Shown here: in pieces, positions 4,961 to 22,247 of the stretch | How the letters are laid out: each line of letters starts with the position of its first letter | How positions within the stretch are numbered: the stretch's first letter is position 1 | Source of the DNA: a phage | Assembly: GCA_023859445.1 (NCBI GenBank) | Contig: GCA_023859445.1_4337.1 | Length of the DNA stretch: 27,839 nt | Direction: 5' to 3' (one strand) | The notes under the pieces: model-generated | The model's database searches: none | Seen by the model: the letters and a program-made list of their open reading frames with translations, nothing else | Told to the model about the DNA's origin: nothing | Program-made: the position numbers and the translations under genes

Positions 4961-5269
4961 TTGGATAAATTTACTGAAACAGTGACGGGGTGGCTTCTCG
5001 CTGCCGCACTGGTCGGTGGATTGGTCGGGCTAAGACAACATAAAAAGTCTATATCCGGGCCGATTGACGGACTGGTATTTCTTCTCACCGGCTTCGCGTG
5101 TGCTATTTTCGGTGCACCTCTTGCCGCTCAATGGTTCGGTATTACCGGTGAGCGTGAGATAGCTGGCCTCGGATTCATCATTGCCATTCTCTGGATGCCT
5201 ATCTATTCCCGCCTTTCTGGCATCGTATCGGGTGGCGATATTGCCCGCCCAGGAGGACCGAATGACTGA
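4961..5269 (+). CDS. Putative holin, three predicted TM segments (102 aa from TTG; alternative GTG at 4982)
   Basis: ORF track; three hydrophobic stretches and charged C-terminus; directly upstream of the endolysin; non-ATG start. Confidence 0.55.
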   Translation: MDKFTETVTGWLLAAALVGGLVGLRQHKKSISGPIDGLVFLLTGFACAIFGAPLAAQWFGITGEREIAGLGFIIAILWMPIYSRLSGIVSGGDIARPGGPND

Positions 5270-5534
5270 GCTATTCTGGTTTGTCGTAATGCTGGCAATG
5301 GGCGCTTCGTCCCTGTTCAACGTGTATAATGAACGCGTGGACGACGGGCTGTTCGGGCGTGTTCTCTATATCCTGACTGCTATCGTCTGTGCCGCCGGAT
5401 GTATTCACCTGTTACAGGGCAGCATGTCGCCTACGCTGCCTGAGACATTAATCACATTAGTCGCGCTGCGCCAGATTCGCCAGGCGTGGCTGTCATACGG
5501 AGGGCATAAGCGTGTCTCGAAACATTTCAGATAA
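5262..5534 (+). CDS. Second small membrane protein of the lysis cassette, two TM segments (90 aa; holin or antiholin candidate)
   Basis: ATG 5262 with SD AGGAGG (5251-5256), overlapping the upstream stop; two hydrophobic segments. Confidence 0.5.
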   Translation: MTELFWFVVMLAMGASSLFNVYNERVDDGLFGRVLYILTAIVCAAGCIHLLQGSMSPTLPETLITLVALRQIRQAWLSYGGHKRVSKHFR

Positions 5535-6000
5535 TGGATTGCATTTTACCGCCGCGTTCGAGGGGTTCCGTGGAACCGCGTATCGTGCTACGTCGAACGA
5601 GAAGTACCTGACTATTGGCTACGGGCACTACGGACCGGACGTAACCCCGGGTAAGACCATCACCCCGGGGCAAGGCCTCCTGTTACTGAATCGTGATATG
5701 GCTAAGGCCGTAGCTGCGGTTGACGCAGCAGCACACCATTCATTGACACAGGCACAGTTCGACGCAGTGTGCGACCTGGTGTATAACGCGGGTGCCGGTG
5801 TGATTGCGGCTACTACTGGCACAGGTAAGGCACTGCGTTCTGGTGACGTCACGACTCTGCGGGCTAAGCTGGCGCTGTTCATCAACCAGAACGGCAAACC
5901 GATACTTGGACTGCGTCGTCGTACCGCCGGTCGTCTGGCGCTGTTCGACGGTAAACCGTGGCAGGAGGCTGAGGCTATCGGGCGCGCGGTGAAAGGTTGA
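5512..6000 (+). CDS. Endolysin, GH24 phage lysozyme (P22 gp19 / T4 E-like)
   Basis: ORF track; GTG start with SD GGAGGG (5499-5504); conserved N-terminal pattern FEGFRGTAYRATSNEKYLTIGYGHYG and C-terminal RR..ALF recalled from GH24 lysozymes. Confidence 0.85.
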   Translation: MSRNISDNGLHFTAAFEGFRGTAYRATSNEKYLTIGYGHYGPDVTPGKTITPGQGLLLLNRDMAKAVAAVDAAAHHSLTQAQFDAVCDLVYNAGAGVIAATTGTGKALRSGDVTTLRAKLALFINQNGKPILGLRRRTAGRLALFDGKPWQEAEAIGRAVKG

Positions 6001-10072: not shown

Positions 10073-11566
10073 ATGGTTTCCGCAAACATTAACGCAGGGC
10101 AAGGGCAGAACGTTAAAACCCGCCACCGCCAGTACGAAGAGTATTTCCCTAAGTGGCAGAAGGTGCGACATGCGCTTTCTGGCGACCTGACATCGTATCT
10201 ACGTGACGTCAGTAAGAACGAGCCGGACCCGGTTTACGGTCGCCAGCGTCAGGCTGAATACGAAGCGGGGGCAATTTGCTACAACTTCACCAAGCGAACG
10301 CTTTCAGGCATGGTCGGCAGCGTAATGCGCAAAGACCCCGAGATGATTATTCCGTCTCAGATGGAATACCTGACCACTAACTGTGACGGGTCGGGCGTTG
10401 GCCTGTGGCAGCACGCACAGGATACTCTGTATGAGATTGATGCTGTTGGTCGCGGTGGTTTGCTGGTTGACGCCCCCGCGGTAGAAGTAGCTACCATGGC
10501 AGAGCAAAACGAGGGTTTACTAAACCCAACAATCGCTTTCTACACCGCAGAGAATATCATCAACTGGCGTCTCCAGCGCGTCGGGTCTGTTAATCGTGTG
10601 GTTATGGTTGTATTGCGTGAGGAATACGAGTACACCGATGGCGCGGATGAGTTCAGCCCCAACTACGGCGAGCAATACCGAGTCCTTGATATTTTCGAAG
10701 GCCAGTATCGCCAGCGTCTGTACCGCTTTAACCAGAAAGGTGCACTGACGGAAGGTGGCTATATCGAAATATTCCCGAAACTCGGTAATATTCCGGTCGG
10801 GGTGATTCCGTTCACGTTCATCGGCGCGGGAAATAACGACTCAACCCCTGACGATGCACCTTTGCTGCCGTTGGCTGAACTTAATATCGGGCACTTCCGC
10901 AACAGCGCGGACAATGAGGAGTCCAGCTTCGTCGTAGGCCAGCCTACTCTGTTCATCGCCCCCGGTGAGAACATGAGCATGGGACAATGGAAAGAAGCCA
11001 ACCCTCACGGAGTGCGTATGGGGTCACGTTCTGGCCATAACATCGGTTACGGCGGCAATGCGTTTCTGGTCCAGGCCGGTGAGAACAACCTAGCCAAGCA
11101 GAACATGTTGGATAAAGAGAACCAGGCAATCCAGATTGGTGCACAGCTTATTACCCCGACGCAGCAAATCACCGCGGAATCGGCACGCCTGCAACGCGGC
11201 GCTGATACGTCCGTTATGGCAACAATCGCACGTAACGTAAGCATGGCGTATACCGATGCGCTGAAATGGGTTGCAGGCATGCTTGGGCTTAGTGACGGTA
11301 CTGAGATTGAGTTTAAGCTGAATATGGAGTTCTTCCTGCAACCGATGACCGCTCAGGACCGTGCGCAGTGGATGGCTGATATAAACGCAGGCCTGTTACC
11401 AGCGACCGCTTACTATGCTGCATTGCGCAAGGCGGGTGTAACTGACTGGACGGACGAGGACATTCAGAATGCTATCGAGGACGCACCTCTGCCGATTGGT
11501 GCGGTTACTCAGGTAGCGGGGGAGATTCCGCAGTCGGCGCAGCAAAAAGACCCCACCCAGCAGTAA
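10073..11566 (+). CDS. Portal protein (497 aa)
   Basis: ORF track; SD AAGAGGA; size and position between terminase and head morphogenesis gene. Confidence 0.75.
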   Translation: MVSANINAGQGQNVKTRHRQYEEYFPKWQKVRHALSGDLTSYLRDVSKNEPDPVYGRQRQAEYEAGAICYNFTKRTLSGMVGSVMRKDPEMIIPSQMEYLTTNCDGSGVGLWQHAQDTLYEIDAVGRGGLLVDAPAVEVATMAEQNEGLLNPTIAFYTAENIINWRLQRVGSVNRVVMVVLREEYEYTDGADEFSPNYGEQYRVLDIFEGQYRQRLYRFNQKGALTEGGYIEIFPKLGNIPVGVIPFTFIGAGNNDSTPDDAPLLPLAELNIGHFRNSADNEESSFVVGQPTLFIAPGENMSMGQWKEANPHGVRMGSRSGHNIGYGGNAFLVQAGENNLAKQNMLDKENQAIQIGAQLITPTQQITAESARLQRGADTSVMATIARNVSMAYTDALKWVAGMLGLSDGTEIEFKLNMEFFLQPMTAQDRAQWMADINAGLLPATAYYAALRKAGVTDWTDEDIQNAIEDAPLPIGAVTQVAGEIPQSAQQKDPTQQ

Positions 11567-11576
11567 GTTCACATAT

Positions 11577-11597
11577 AGCCCCGAAAGGGGCTTTCTT
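11577..11597 (+). terminator. Weak terminator-like hairpin after portal
   Basis: Stem AGCCCC/GGGGCT, GAAA loop, then TTCTTAT; overlaps start region of next gene so probably leaky. Confidence 0.35.
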
Positions 11598-11602
11598 ATA
11601 GT

Positions 11603-12679
11603 ATGCTATTAACTTTAGCGCCACAGGGTTTATCTATGAGCTTACTTACATCACTAATCAGCCACCAGATATGGCTGCAACGCACCGCATCCGGTGAGGT
11701 GAAAGACCTCGCGCCGTTCATTAAGGAGATGCGGGACGAAATCAAACGGCAGGTGCTGCTATTCGGCGACGACGGTCGCAGCACTGCGCGACTGAATAAA
11801 CTGTTACGTGACCTTGAAGAAGTACTGACAGGACTTACTGGTGACTGGCAAACAAAGCTGGCAGAAGACCTCAAGGAACTGGCGGTGTATGAAGCTGAGT
11901 GGAACGTAAAGACCCTGACCGCCAACGTAGATGCGGAATTTGTTACGCCCACCGCCGAACAGGTGTGGGCCGCTGCTGAGTTTCAGCCATTATCATTGAG
12001 TGGCAAGCCAGTTGATTTCACTAAACTGATGTCAGGTTGGGGTGAAACGGAAGTAGCACGTCTTGTAACCGGCGTTAAGATGGGCTTTGTACAAGGTCAA
12101 ACAACACGGCAGATTGTTAAGAATGTAGTAGGCGCCGGTGGGCTGGCTGACATCTCTGAGCGTAACGCCGCTACCGTCATCCGCACCGCGCTGTCTCACG
12201 TGTCCAACGAAGCCCGTAACGAGACGTACCGCCAGAACGACGACATCATAGAGAAGTACGAGTGGGTGTCAACGCTTGACAGCCGCACCAGTACGATTTG
12301 CAGGGTCAGAGACGGGATGACGTGGGAAATTGGTAAGGGGCCGATGCCCCCTGCCCATCCGAACTGCCGGTCGTGCACGGCTCCGGTAATCAGTTCCGAG
12401 TTCGACTTCCTCGATAAAGGCGCAAAACGCGCGGCTAAAGGCGCGGAAGGTGGCACTCAGGTAAGCGTAGACACCACTTACTACGAGTTCCTTAAACAAC
12501 AACCGGCGTGGTTTCAGGACCAGGCGCTCGGCCCGGTGCGAGGTAAGATTTTCCGTAACAGCGGTATATCGCCGGAAGAGTTTCGCGTAATATCTGTAGA
12601 TGGTTTCGGGAATCCGCTCACGCTTAAGCAGATGGCGGAACTCGATAAACGTGTTGCTGATTATCTGAAAGGGGAATAA
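11603..12679 (+). CDS. Head morphogenesis protein (SPP1 gp7 / Mu F-like minor head protein)
   Basis: ORF track; motif region DSRTSTICRVRDGMTWEIGKGPMPPAHPNCRSC characteristic of this family (from memory); alternative start ATG 11636. Confidence 0.8.
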   Translation: MLLTLAPQGLSMSLLTSLISHQIWLQRTASGEVKDLAPFIKEMRDEIKRQVLLFGDDGRSTARLNKLLRDLEEVLTGLTGDWQTKLAEDLKELAVYEAEWNVKTLTANVDAEFVTPTAEQVWAAAEFQPLSLSGKPVDFTKLMSGWGETEVARLVTGVKMGFVQGQTTRQIVKNVVGAGGLADISERNAATVIRTALSHVSNEARNETYRQNDDIIEKYEWVSTLDSRTSTICRVRDGMTWEIGKGPMPPAHPNCRSCTAPVISSEFDFLDKGAKRAAKGAEGGTQVSVDTTYYEFLKQQPAWFQDQALGPVRGKIFRNSGISPEEFRVISVDGFGNPLTLKQMAELDKRVADYLKGE

Positions 12680-13140
12680 TGATGGGCTTTTTCAAAGTAA
12701 CTGACGTACCGTCTCGTCGCGTAGTCCAGTACGCCCGCGTGTCTGGCTCTGGAGAGAACGTGGTGTTTATTGATGATGAAAGTGTACTCGGTACACCCGA
12801 AGACGATATGCCGTTTGCAGATAAAACCGGTATTGCGTTACCCGCGGCGGGCATGCTTTATGAAATTCCGTATCTGGCGGATGCAGGTGACGTGTATTTC
12901 TCGGTGCAACCGAAAGACACCGAGCTGGTCGACGGTAGCGCCACCATCACCGTCGAAGTTAAGGCGGGTAAAGCGCCGTGTGTACTGACCTGGTACAAAG
13001 ACGGTAAGGAAGTGGTAAACGCCCCGGAAGAGGCTTTGTCTCTAACGGTTAATGCAGTTGGCGAATACTTTGTTAAAGTTACTGATGCCGATGGTGTAGA
13101 GGCCGTAAGCAAAGCGGCGAAGGTTACTAAGCCAGAATGA
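12679..13140 (+). CDS. Hypothetical protein with C-terminal Ig-like (beta-sandwich) segment, 153 aa
   Basis: ORF track; C-terminal pattern TITVEVKAGKAPCVLTWYKDGKEV...GEYFVKVTDADG resembles Ig-like/BIG domains; possibly virion decoration. Confidence 0.45.
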   Translation: MMGFFKVTDVPSRRVVQYARVSGSGENVVFIDDESVLGTPEDDMPFADKTGIALPAAGMLYEIPYLADAGDVYFSVQPKDTELVDGSATITVEVKAGKAPCVLTWYKDGKEVVNAPEEALSLTVNAVGEYFVKVTDADGVEAVSKAAKVTKPE

Positions 13141-13144
13141 TAAA

Positions 13145-13169
13145 AGGCCCCTTTCGGGGCCTTATTTTT
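13145..13169. terminator. Bidirectional intrinsic terminator
   Basis: Stem AGGCCCC/GGGGCCT, loop TTTC, flanked by AAAA upstream and TTATTTTT downstream; lies between convergent genes ending at 13140 (+) and 13172 (-). Confidence 0.75.
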
Positions 13170-13171
13170 CA

Positions 13172-13273
13172 TCAAAGTTCACCATTCCCGCTATCTGCGT
13201 CCTCGACCCCGCTAACAGCCCACACAAACAATCCTAAATTAACCAGTAACACAAATGAAATTGCTACCATCAT
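13172..13273 (-). CDS. Small single-pass membrane peptide (33 aa: MMVAISFVLLVNLGLFVWAVSGVEDADSGNGEL)
   Basis: Minus-strand ATGATG at 13273/13270, SD GGAGG 5 nt upstream, own copy of the conserved promoter upstream and the bidirectional terminator downstream; hydrophobic core with acidic tail. Confidence 0.5.
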   Translation of the reverse strand: MMVAISFVLLVNLGLFVWAVSGVEDADSGNGEL

Positions 13274-13298
13274 AACCACCTCCACTATACGTTTACTT

Positions 13299-13328
13299 AA
13301 TAGTACCCTATTATGTTGGTGTCTGCAA
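13299..13328 (-). promoter_or_regulatory. Conserved phage promoter, copy 3 (TTGCAG-N17-TACTAT, minus strand)
   Basis: -35 complement of 13323-13328, -10 complement of 13300-13305; palindrome AATAGTACCCTATT at 13299-13312. Confidence 0.5.
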
Positions 13329-13342
13329 ACTATTTGTTTACG

Positions 13343-13394
13343 TATTCCAGTTATTCCACTCAATTGTAAATGTTGGAATAAGCTATTCGAATAG
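13343..13394. promoter_or_regulatory. Operator-like array of TATTCCA/TGGAATA half-sites plus 12-bp palindrome CTATTCGAATAG
   Basis: TATTCCA 13343-13349 and 13352-13358, TGGAATA 13374-13380 (8-bp IR with 15-nt spacer), palindrome 13383-13394; lies between divergent promoters. Confidence 0.4.
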
Positions 13395-13423
13395 TTGACT
13401 TTTCACCAAAAATGTGCTAAGCT
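13395..13423 (+). promoter_or_regulatory. Candidate sigma70 promoter with extended -10 (TTGACT-17-TGcTAAGCT)
   Basis: -35 13395-13400, TG 13415-13416, -10 TAAGCT 13418-13423. Confidence 0.45.
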
Positions 13424-13603
13424 CCACCTGAGCTTGTGAAGTATGAACAAGCGACCGCGGCGCGGGCAGGTAACGGAGCGGGACGTAAGTCCTGAGTGTA
13501 GTTACGCTGACGCGTTCGGAAGGGCAATACTCTATTGCTTGTGTAAAAAGTAACTGGTTTACTGAGATTACGCCGTTTCTATGTTTAAATGATAAGGACT
13601 AGC

Positions 13604-13630
13604 GCCCCGCTTTAAGGCGGGGCTTTACTT
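13604..13630 (+). terminator. GC-rich hairpin with weak T-tract just upstream of Rz
   Basis: Stem GCCCCGC/GCGGGGC (13604-13610 / 13617-13623), loop TTTAAG, then TTTACTT. Confidence 0.35.
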
Positions 13631-13647
13631 ATCGAGAAAGGGGAAAC

Positions 13648-14034
13648 ATGAATCTTAAAGCAACTGTCGTAGCGGGAGCATGTTTCATCATCCTGGCTTA
13701 CGCACACGGCATCTACCAGTATCGCAGCGGCTGGAACGGAGGCCGGGCGAATCTCGTTTCGCAGCAACAGCAGAAAGCACAGGCTGAGCTTGTGAAGAAA
13801 ACACAACGGCAGCAGCAGGATGAATCAAAGGCCGCAGCCGCCGATAACGAAGGCAAGACGAAATCAGAGGTGATCACCCGTGAAGTCGTTAAGTACATTA
13901 AAACGCCTGGCCGCAGCGTGTGCACTTTTGACCCTGAGCGCGTGCAGCTCAAGTCCCGCGCCGTCGCAAACGCCAATTCCATCCCCGGATACGACGATGA
14001 TGCAGCCGCCGTGCAAACTGGCACTGCCAAGTAA
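13648..14034 (+). CDS. Rz: Inner-membrane spanin (Rz-like i-spanin), 128 aa
   Basis: ORF track; N-terminal TM segment, then Gln/Lys/Glu-rich predicted coiled coil; contains an embedded lipoprotein gene in the +1 frame. Confidence 0.7.
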   Translation: MNLKATVVAGACFIILAYAHGIYQYRSGWNGGRANLVSQQQQKAQAELVKKTQRQQQDESKAAAADNEGKTKSEVITREVVKYIKTPGRSVCTFDPERVQLKSRAVANANSIPGYDDDAAAVQTGTAK

Positions 14035-14143
14035 CGACGCGGACGAGGATTTAGCTATTGACGTCCAGAACGCAGAATGTGTACGGCAACTGAGACTTAA
14101 AGTGTTCATGTTGCAGGATTACGTGAGGAATATTCTGGAATAG
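13880..14143 (+). CDS. Rz1: Outer-membrane lipoprotein spanin (Rz1-like o-spanin), 87 aa
   Basis: ORF track (GTG start, SD AGAGGTGA); signal peptide with lipobox LSAC followed by Pro-rich mature region; starts inside Rz in the +1 frame and extends 109 nt past the Rz stop. Confidence 0.7.
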   Translation: MKSLSTLKRLAAACALLTLSACSSSPAPSQTPIPSPDTTMMQPPCKLALPSNDADEDLAIDVQNAECVRQLRLKVFMLQDYVRNILE

Positions 14144-22217: not shown

Positions 22218-22247
22218 AATAGTACCCTATTATATTTGGGTGCGCAA
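22218..22247 (-). promoter_or_regulatory. Conserved phage promoter, copy 4 (TTGCGC-N17-TACTAT, minus strand)
   Basis: -35 complement of 22242-22247, -10 complement of 22219-22224, palindrome AATAGTACCCTATT 22218-22231; drives the minus-strand accessory operon. Confidence 0.5.

Follow-up and report, generated by a model that had tools for sequence, protein, structure and literature searches.

A 27,839-nucleotide stretch of phage DNA (NCBI GenBank assembly GCA_023859445.1, contig GCA_023859445.1_4337.1; hereafter the window) carries, at positions 13172-13273 on the minus strand, a 33-codon open reading frame (ORF) that is very probably a real gene, as judged from sequence comparison. The explanation favoured here, with slightly better than even confidence, is that this gene forms part of an exchangeable accessory cassette and encodes an inner-membrane peptide that would modify the envelope of the infected cell, most plausibly by excluding competitors. 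Over positions 12600-14100, the identity of the window is 99.0% with Escherichia phage K1H, a Kagunavirus of the Guernseyvirinae, and 91-94% with approximately 115 further Escherichia and Salmonella phages of the K1H group. The neighbouring genes in K1H all lie on the plus strand and comprise a head-morphogenesis gene, a Hoc-like head-decoration gene, the Rz/Rz1 spanins, a scaffold protein and the major head protein. The interval from the Hoc-like gene to Rz contains no annotated feature in K1H, where the 33-codon ORF is likewise unannotated, and the present finding corrects this annotation gap in the K1H RefSeq record.

The cassette and its cargo slot

The exchangeable character of the cassette is evident from comparison with 38 related loci, which were fetched from IMG/VR with the Hoc-like protein as the query. 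When window positions 13100-13660 were compared with these loci by BLAST, an end-to-end alignment was obtained only with K1H and phage M01; in the other loci, homology ends at the terminator of the Hoc-like gene and resumes at a promoter box or, where no cargo is present, at window position 13343. The slot between this terminator and the Rz region is empty in nine of the 38 loci. In such empty-slot relatives the terminator is joined directly to the sequence beginning at 13343, and cargo-bearing ones regain homology at 13277-13299. Otherwise, the slot holds at least 13 unrelated cargoes, including a DNA methyltransferase of 242-246 amino acids (aa), a 179-aa HNH-like protein, a 173-aa beta-clamp/RusA-like protein (phrog_3007), a signal-anchored protein of 70-75 aa, ORFans of 57, 67, 81, 83 and 94 aa, and sets of two and three genes. 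The same promoter box, together with a strong Shine-Dalgarno (SD) sequence, lies ahead of every cargo, and the box is missing from empty slots. A second antisense slot, located in the portal/head-morphogenesis interval, features the same promoter box and the same cargo types (the 173-aa protein, the methyltransferase, and ORFans of 57 aa and 61 aa); it is empty in the window (11566-11603) and filled in the loci L007, L015, L017, L019, L022, L024, L025 and L029, at approximately 1100-1420. Since the same cargoes occur in both slots, cassettes shuffle between them. The peptide gene itself is absent from most Kagunaviruses, and the unit that carries it is a minimal moron of about 180 bp, composed of a candidate promoter, the gene and a terminator. 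In the record of phage K-02 (L046, PQ436005.1), the annotation of the cargo cassette shows three short ORFs instead and places them on the incorrect strand.

The exact peptide of the window was found on at least 38 contigs (69 index blocks) of a 15-billion-protein collection, and seven minority variants occur on 13 more contigs: W18R, D25G, V3I/V20I/S29R, N31S, M2T/F7S/G22E, a one-residue extension, and an in-frame duplication of seven residues (21 nucleotides, nt). In all 10 of the K1H-type contexts inspected, the peptide gene stands alone in the slot and is followed by the terminator and the Hoc-like gene, and the backbones of these contexts differ, for example in the presence or absence of an intein in a head gene and in the length of the scaffold. 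Eight contigs have a Hoc-like gene that differs from that of the window at 43-59 of 462 nt (87-91% identity) and an Rz gene that differs at 22-27 of 386-387 nt, but a cargo block at 13156-13297, which spans the 3' half of the terminator, the ORF, the SD sequence and the 5' untranslated region (UTR), contains no difference at all in these contigs. Mismatches restart at 13151-13155, in the terminator loop, and at 13298, beside the -10 element. Although the loci of these contigs were chosen by exact protein identity, such selection cannot account for the complete lack of synonymous and UTR changes. The identity of the block in diverged backbones therefore reflects recent transfer by recombination within the flanking promoter and terminator.

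A sequence-only reading of this stretch had described a self-contained minus-strand unit with a promoter of a conserved family, an SD sequence, a short ORF and a bidirectional terminator, and all of these elements were recovered. The whole accessory cassette (promoter, 5' UTR and 33-codon gene; 13164-13342, minus strand) lies between the Hoc-gene terminator and the conserved backbone sequence TATTCCAGTTATTCC, and its guanine-cytosine content is 39.7%, compared with 50.7% in the window and 51-55% in the flanking genes. The ORF reads from 13273 to 13172, begins with ATGATG, ends with TGA and has the predicted product MMVAISFVLLVNLGLFVWAVSGVEDADSGNGEL. The SD sequence GGAGG (13279-13283, minus strand) is located 5 nt before the first ATG (13273-13271). 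Only four GGAGG-N4-9-ATG sites (five pattern matches) exist in the whole window, that of the peptide gene among them, and the spacing is the same in the Golestan-type allele described below (GGAGGCCGTCATG). The ATGATG start that had been singled out is present in the window, but the double Met is not a conserved feature, the second allele having ML and one variant MT.

The candidate promoter is a repeated phage box (TTGCAGACACCAACATAATAGGGTACTATT; 13299-13328, minus strand) with a -35 element TTGCAG (13328-13323), a 17-nt spacer and a -10 element TACTAT (13305-13300). The pattern TTGC..AC.C.AA.ATAATAGGGTACTATT is found, with at most one mismatch, at 13328-13299 on the minus strand, 2492-2521 on the plus strand and 22218-22247 on the minus strand; with three copies in the window and none expected by chance, the conserved promoter family is real as a repeated element. 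K1H contains seven copies if weaker ones are included, two of which lie upstream of an HTH regulator gene and one upstream of an exonuclease/kinase operon, and the box also precedes the rightward small-gene region. For phage fBC-Eco01, a "phage promoter" consensus, tgAATAGTa-ccTATTat-T, has been reported from PHIRE analysis (PMC9825357), and the box of the window is the reverse complement of this consensus. The label "phage RNA polymerase promoter" (PMC9825357) seems doubtful because K1H has no annotated RNA polymerase gene. Transcription would start at approximately 13293. The box further holds a perfect palindrome, AATAG-N4-CTATT, over the -10 element (13300-13314, 2506-2520 and 22219-22233), and a related palindrome, CTATTCGAATAG, is situated at 13382-13393, adjoining the plus-strand promoter-like site. 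As two of the K1H copies precede the HTH gene, the box may double as an operator for this regulator within an early regulon.

The cassette is bounded by a bidirectional intrinsic terminator (13144-13163), which has an 8-bp GC-rich stem and a 4-nt loop, was scored on each strand, and marks the end of both the Hoc-like transcript (plus strand) and the peptide transcript (minus strand). On the minus strand, the hairpin (13163-13144) is followed by UUUUAUCAUU, and the stop codon of the peptide gene runs directly into the terminator. The sequence AAAAATAAGGCCCC after the stop codon was considered as a possible deletion scar and rejected, as it represents the U-tract of the backbone Hoc terminator on the other strand.

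The second allele and its operon

A tblastn search of 50,697 phage records identified 15 that match the peptide, all of them from Kagunavirus (51.5-54.5% identity over residues 1-33, with E values of 6e-5 to 3e-3). These records comprise K1H (two records), M01, AMO_3701M and 11 with a second allele, MLVVISVVIAVDAVMFLWACSGIGEIDTGNGEL, which is carried by Golestan, phiEc4, fBC-Eco01, phiSD1, SZH-1, HSE2, K-02, BUCT823 and SCS44. In several of them, the second allele is annotated as a 33-aa hypothetical protein (Golestan gp06, YP_009620086.1; fBCEco01_08; QYU43855.1; SZH-1 gp74). The two alleles are 52-55% identical over 33 residues without indels, occupy the same slot, and have the same promoter box and SD spacing; an F-x-W-A-x-S-G core and a GNGEL C-terminus are shared by both. 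At the nucleotide level, they differ at 39 of 102 positions (38%; 11, 8 and 20 by codon position), with identical start and stop codons, and the proportions of synonymous (pS) and nonsynonymous (pN) differences are 0.62-0.77 and 0.28-0.30, respectively, the synonymous divergence being saturated. When random substitutions were simulated at the observed level, the ORF remained intact in 3.5% of cases and the observed amino-acid identity was reached in 0.3%. A 33-codon ORF is by itself not beyond chance, and it is the conservation between the aligned alleles that carries the case for a gene. The assignment of this gene to the minus strand is based on the promoter and SD sequence, the fixed start and stop codons, substitutions that are more conservative in the sense frame (BLOSUM sum of 93, versus 59 in the antisense frame), and the ATGA coupling of the second allele to a bona fide lipoprotein gene.

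In its carriers, the second allele is the first gene of a three-gene operon, in which its TGA overlaps the ATG (as ATGA) of a gene encoding a 114-aa lipoprotein (phrog_13472, lipobox LSGC). The peptide gene of the window and of K1H stands alone, with no coupled lipoprotein gene, and the same was observed in 10 of the 10 K1H-type contigs inspected. The stop codon of the lipoprotein gene in turn overlaps (ATGA) the start of an unannotated ORF for a hydrophobic transmembrane product of 23-25 aa. This third ORF, MQMTNSVMFYVVLWVSAAVITAMFI, is located at approximately 1635-1712 in the Golestan locus (L044) and at 2172-2249 in L066; its conservation, with conservative replacements, extends to a cassette encoding an 82%-identical lipoprotein, and the ORF is likely to be another missed micro-gene. 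Within the collected loci, the lipoprotein family phrog_13472 is represented in the Golestan cassette (L034/L044), in L050-L054 and in L067-L071.

The 114-aa lipoprotein belongs to a family with 20 homologues from several phyla, characterized by an invariant N-x-x-LGVTG-F-x-x-VP-x-FFMD signature and a Cys pair. Homologues with 39-45% identity reside in P22-like prophages of Citrobacter and relatives, immediately after a homologue of the gene-16 ejection protein and before arc/mnt/ant and the tailspike gene, and this is the very spot that sieA occupies in P22-like prophages (PMC10883804). Other homologues adjoin relaxase and ProQ/FinO genes on plasmid-like contigs, and the family is also found in Deferribacteres. 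An AlphaFold2 model of the lipoprotein reached a predicted local distance difference test score (pLDDT) of 62.5 and was therefore too weak for a fold search. The genomic context suggests an exclusion-type envelope function for this candidate exclusion lipoprotein and, by association, for the whole operon.

Proposed function and competing explanations

The peptide is hydrophobic over residues 1-21, and its best segment, residues 1-17, shows a mean Kyte-Doolittle value of 2.5 and a summed Hessa free energy (dG) of -1.1 kcal/mol. A transmembrane helix is predicted at approximately residues 1-21, followed by an acidic tail that ends in the conserved GNGEL and contains four acidic (Asp/Glu) and no basic (Lys/Arg) residues, basic residues being absent from the whole peptide. 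AlphaFold2 modelled a single helix over residues 2-31 with a pLDDT of 86.8. The hydrophobic helix and acidic tail described in the sequence-only reading are thus upheld. An exhaustive HMMER search of 1.84 billion representatives recovered just the peptide's own cluster and one spurious tandem-repeat protein, and a word-indexed protein search with a padded query returned the peptide's own cluster only. A degenerate back-translated motif was found solely in Kagunavirus contigs of IMG/VR, GTDB genomes and JGI metagenomes, the six other hits being chance matches in unrelated ORFs, and complete Escherichia coli genomes contained no match to the peptide. The plasmid search produced a single match, with a Golestan-type peptide at 33292-33387 of CP088689.1 (PLSDB; 44,086 bp, from an E. 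coli blood isolate), a sequence that is Kagunavirus-like in size and is probably a phage genome, representing a carrier state or contamination, that was filed as a non-mobilizable plasmid. As far as these sequence searches extend, the peptide family is restricted to Kagunavirus; it is already present as "hypothetical" in the annotation of relatives and absent from the K1H record.

According to the favoured explanation, the gene would be transcribed by host RNA polymerase during the early or middle phase of infection, giving a minus-strand mRNA of approximately 155 nt that extends from about 13293 to about 13138. In the one Kagunavirus studied by time-course RNA-seq, K1B4, the HTH gene is classed as "early" (PMC12645636). 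Since the promoter box is common to the HTH regulator gene and to DNA-metabolism genes, expression in the early or middle phase, rather than the late phase, appears probable. The peptide would enter the inner membrane as a single helix, and its acidic, Lys/Arg-free tail would most likely face the periplasm, because acidic tails undergo translocation of the proton motive force/YidC type, as exemplified by the Pf3 and M13 coat proteins. A polar residue in the middle of the helix (Asn12; Asp12 in the other allele) and the conserved face formed by Trp18-Ala19 and Ser21-Gly22 would suit helix-helix contacts, and these residues, together with the acidic GNGEL tail, are as expected for a peptide that docks onto another membrane protein. 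In the most speculative step, the peptide would bind such a protein and thereby alter the envelope of the infected cell. Its partner would be the co-translated 114-aa lipoprotein in Golestan-type phages and presumably a host inner-membrane protein, or the DNA-delivery apparatus of an incoming phage, in K1H-type phages. The most plausible outcome would be that superinfecting phages are excluded, not that lysis timing is controlled. A small membrane-active or defence-related peptide had previously been offered as a fallback, and this idea fits the accessory-gene context better than a function in lysis.

Several observations weigh against this explanation. The connection between the peptide and exclusion is guilt by association at two removes, leading from the peptide to the lipoprotein and from the lipoprotein to the sieA slot. 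The modules are also separable: the 33-aa gene is missing from the Kagunavirus locus L066, where the lipoprotein and the short ORF are present, the lipoprotein occurs alone in P22-like prophages, and the peptide occurs alone in K1H. Comparison of the peptide with Pfam, PHROGs, NCBIfam, PADLOC and PDB sequences revealed no homologue of known function. A generic sigma-70 scan made no call on the promoter box at 13299-13328, because the -35 element agrees at just three of six positions. The values of pS and pN cannot assign the coding strand, because an antisense frame that has the same wobble positions is open in both alleles and yields similar values; they were for this reason rejected as proof of the coding strand. 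The GNGEL codons of the second allele fall on the ribosome-binding site that precedes the lipoprotein gene (GGTGAACTATG), and their conservation may derive, at least in part, from this site instead of from a function of the peptide. Furthermore, W18R (three contigs), N31S and G22E alter positions that are conserved between the alleles, and the protein index in which the variants were found records intact ORFs only, which constitutes an ascertainment bias.

The foremost rival explanation, considered unlikely, is that the cassette has no function and descends from the three-gene membrane operon, whose two downstream genes (for the lipoprotein and the 23-25-aa peptide) would have been lost while the gene for the 33-aa peptide stayed behind. 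In the operon, the 33-codon ORF may mainly have acted as a leader for translational coupling or as an accessory subunit; it would now be expressed but useless, hitch-hiking through a recombination hot spot. Consistent with such a past, the second allele, the only other one, invariably opens the ATGA-coupled operon, the lipoprotein functions elsewhere without the peptide, the GNGEL codons overlie the lipoprotein ribosome-binding site, and several of the seven minority variants (W18R, N31S, G22E) lie at allele-conserved positions. M01 and AMO_3701M additionally have indels in the ORF; however, in the assemblies of both (L003, OR061069.1 for M01; PQ474795.1 for AMO_3701M), numerous single-base indels interrupt essential genes (head morphogenesis, major capsid), so that the M01 frameshifts are unreliable and were rejected as evidence of decay. 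Moreover, the stand-alone cassette is common, as its presence with the exact protein on at least 38 contigs attests, its nucleotide sequence does not vary between backbones although the adjacent gene is 10-13% divergent, and the reading frame is preserved in every recorded copy, even the one with the 21-nt duplication. That a useless insert of 180 bp can disappear is clear from the empty slots, and the partner genes may have been gained rather than lost.

It is quite improbable that the product is a membrane-active toxin or host shut-off peptide resembling type I toxins, whose target would be the inner membrane, depolarised or made permeable at an early stage of infection. The size, single hydrophobic helix and charged tail would fit (Fst, for comparison, has 33 aa, one transmembrane helix and a charged tail), as would the strong SD sequence and the gene's own putative promoter, and convergent read-through from the Hoc operon could supply an antisense RNA. 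This read-through would nevertheless be the sole antisense source, as no dedicated antisense promoter-like site was found on the plus strand within the cassette. Most type I toxins carry Lys or Arg, whereas the peptide has no basic residue, and no similarity to any toxin family was detected in the searches. The fold of the predicted mRNA is not unusual and contains no structure that sequesters the SD sequence (z = -1.34), and the operon partner of the other allele is a lipoprotein instead of an antitoxin.

Little credence can be given to the proposal that the unit is not a protein gene and acts at the level of RNA or transcription, either as a short antisense RNA or as a convergent promoter that insulates or attenuates head-operon read-through, with the ORF being incidental. 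The perfect nucleotide identity of the block at 13156-13297 across backbones would fit this proposal too, the shared wobble positions of the antisense frame render the codon-position signal ambiguous, and a neighbouring annotated ORF of 36 aa is evidently non-coding, indicating that small ORFs in this region can be spurious. Against it, alleles that are 38% diverged keep the start, stop, length, SD spacing and hydrophobic-helix pattern and show conservative replacements, and other cargoes of the slot, such as the methyltransferase, are obviously proteins. In addition, the terminator is the sole strong structure in the fold of the predicted peptide mRNA, and Rfam yielded no family anywhere in the window.

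A role in lysis timing had been suggested earlier from the position of the gene beside Rz/Rz1, with the peptide acting as a holin, antiholin or lysis inhibitor together with the adjacent spanins; this is now regarded as very improbable. In its favour, a small membrane peptide is encoded about 370 nt from the start of Rz, and many holin-family proteins are small membrane proteins. In most relatives, however, the slot holds unrelated cargo or none, and the position of the peptide gene in such a general cargo slot therefore carries no functional information. The peptide gene and Rz are transcribed divergently, with an independent conserved unit of 300 nt between them; the holins and endolysin are encoded at 4961-6000 of the window, approximately 7 kb away; and the promoter box, being common to HTH and DNA-metabolism genes, is not a late element. 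As in holins and antiholins, at least one transmembrane domain is predicted in the peptide. Those proteins, however, have a hydrophilic, highly charged and typically basic C-terminus, are encoded beside the endolysin in the lysis cassette, are kept throughout a phage family, and possess a conserved dual start, whereas the tail of the peptide has four Asp/Glu and no Lys/Arg, its gene is far from the endolysin and patchy in Kagunavirus, its double Met is not conserved, and its two forms would not differ in charge.

Barely credible is the reading of the product as a pre-peptide and not a structural membrane peptide, in which the Lys/Arg-free hydrophobic N-terminus would be an export signal, cleavage would follow Ala in the conserved, signal-peptidase-like site (V/L)-W-A-x-S-G, and the invariant acidic C-terminus (...D-x-G-N-G-E-L) would leave the cytoplasm as a diffusible phage signal or decoy. 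The released peptide would be arbitrium-like or would block a receptor, in a strictly lytic coliphage and from a 180-bp cassette that is freely exchangeable; in a less exotic version, the product would be the smallest known stand-alone superinfection-exclusion determinant.

Neighbouring features and known systems

According to the K1H annotation, the Hoc-like head-decoration gene corresponds to window positions 12679-13140 and the Rz/Rz1 spanins to 13648-14143, both on the plus strand. Just upstream of Rz, a plus-strand unit at 13397-13625 is 96-98% identical even where the cargo differs, and contains a promoter-like site, TTGACT-N17-TAAGCT, as well as its own terminator at 13604-13623. In relatives, an ORF of 36 aa is annotated within it (Bas70_0007, fBCEco01_09; window 13443-13553); its variation is not that of a coding sequence, since the variable columns are distributed 15/16/14 over the codon positions and 11 of approximately 47 distinct variants are cut to 9 aa. 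This unit, which varies little, probably acts as a non-coding RNA or as a leader that regulates the spanin/head operon. Two further ORFs are mechanical antisense frames: one of 85 aa at 13137-13394 (plus strand), which runs through the cassette and the terminator, and one of 105 aa at 12858-13175 (minus strand), which runs through the Hoc-like gene. The 85-aa ORF seems conserved because its wobble positions are common with those of the peptide gene; it crosses the terminator, lacks an SD sequence, and is thus most likely spurious.

If the peptide is active alone, its gene would be among the smallest autonomous phage accessory genes, with 33 codons in approximately 180 bp that include its regulation, and would offer an easy handle on envelope remodelling and competitor exclusion by lytic siphophages, a subject relevant to the design of cocktails for phage therapy directed at K1 and uropathogenic E. 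coli. The cassette pool to which it belongs constitutes a set of unexplored accessory genes, including the widespread lipoprotein family found in the sieA slot of P22-like prophages.

Among known proteins, the Golestan gp06 family is homologous to the peptide over its full length and equal in length; there, the gene is borne by an operon with the lipoprotein and the 23-25-aa ORF, whereas here it stands alone before a terminator. The bacterial small membrane regulators AcrZ, MgrB, MgtS, KdpF and SgrT and the type I toxins Fst and TisB have fewer than 50 aa and one transmembrane helix; the regulators act, or presumably act, by docking their helix onto helices of larger membrane proteins, and the toxins by perturbing the membrane. 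The peptide resembles them in size and in its single helix, but no sequence relationship was found, and it contains no basic residues. The inner-membrane exclusion proteins P22 SieA and T4 Imm and the exclusion lipoproteins T5 Llp and TP-J34 Ltp are similar in being small phage envelope proteins encoded in variable accessory positions, without homology to the peptide. SieA (approximately 19 kDa) spans the membrane several times and contains the motif FxRYPxEAxxFNK (PMC10883804), whereas the peptide has 33 aa, a single helix and no such motif.

The cassette resembles lambdoid morons, as defined by Hendrix and Juhala, in being a unit of a putative promoter, a gene and a terminator, of low GC content and patchy distribution, between genes that are adjacent in relatives. 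Unlike them, it belongs to a strictly lytic phage, carries as its putative promoter a repeated box of that phage and not one that is active in lysogens, and has a cargo of only 33 codons. The HK97 moron product gp15 is an inner-membrane superinfection-exclusion protein (PMC3594210) and has no sequence similarity to the peptide. In this respect, the peptide gene is one more moron-borne small membrane protein of a kind already known; modest in itself, it is more telling as an entry to promoter-led cassette shuffling in the genus Kagunavirus. The closest parallel to such shuffling is provided by the promoter-early stem-loop (PeSL) cassettes of T4-type phages, in which small non-essential ORFs between a promoter and a stem-loop are exchanged by recombination at these elements (PMC2839356, PMC4122927). 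Both systems have breakpoints in the flanking promoter and terminator and the same cargo at different sites, but the present cassettes belong to a siphovirus (Guernseyvirinae), use another motif, and lie antisense inside a structural operon. Like the T4-type phages with their PeSL cassettes, Kagunaviruses maintain a stock of cargo cassettes, each headed by a promoter box, which relocate among at least two antisense slots within the structural operon.

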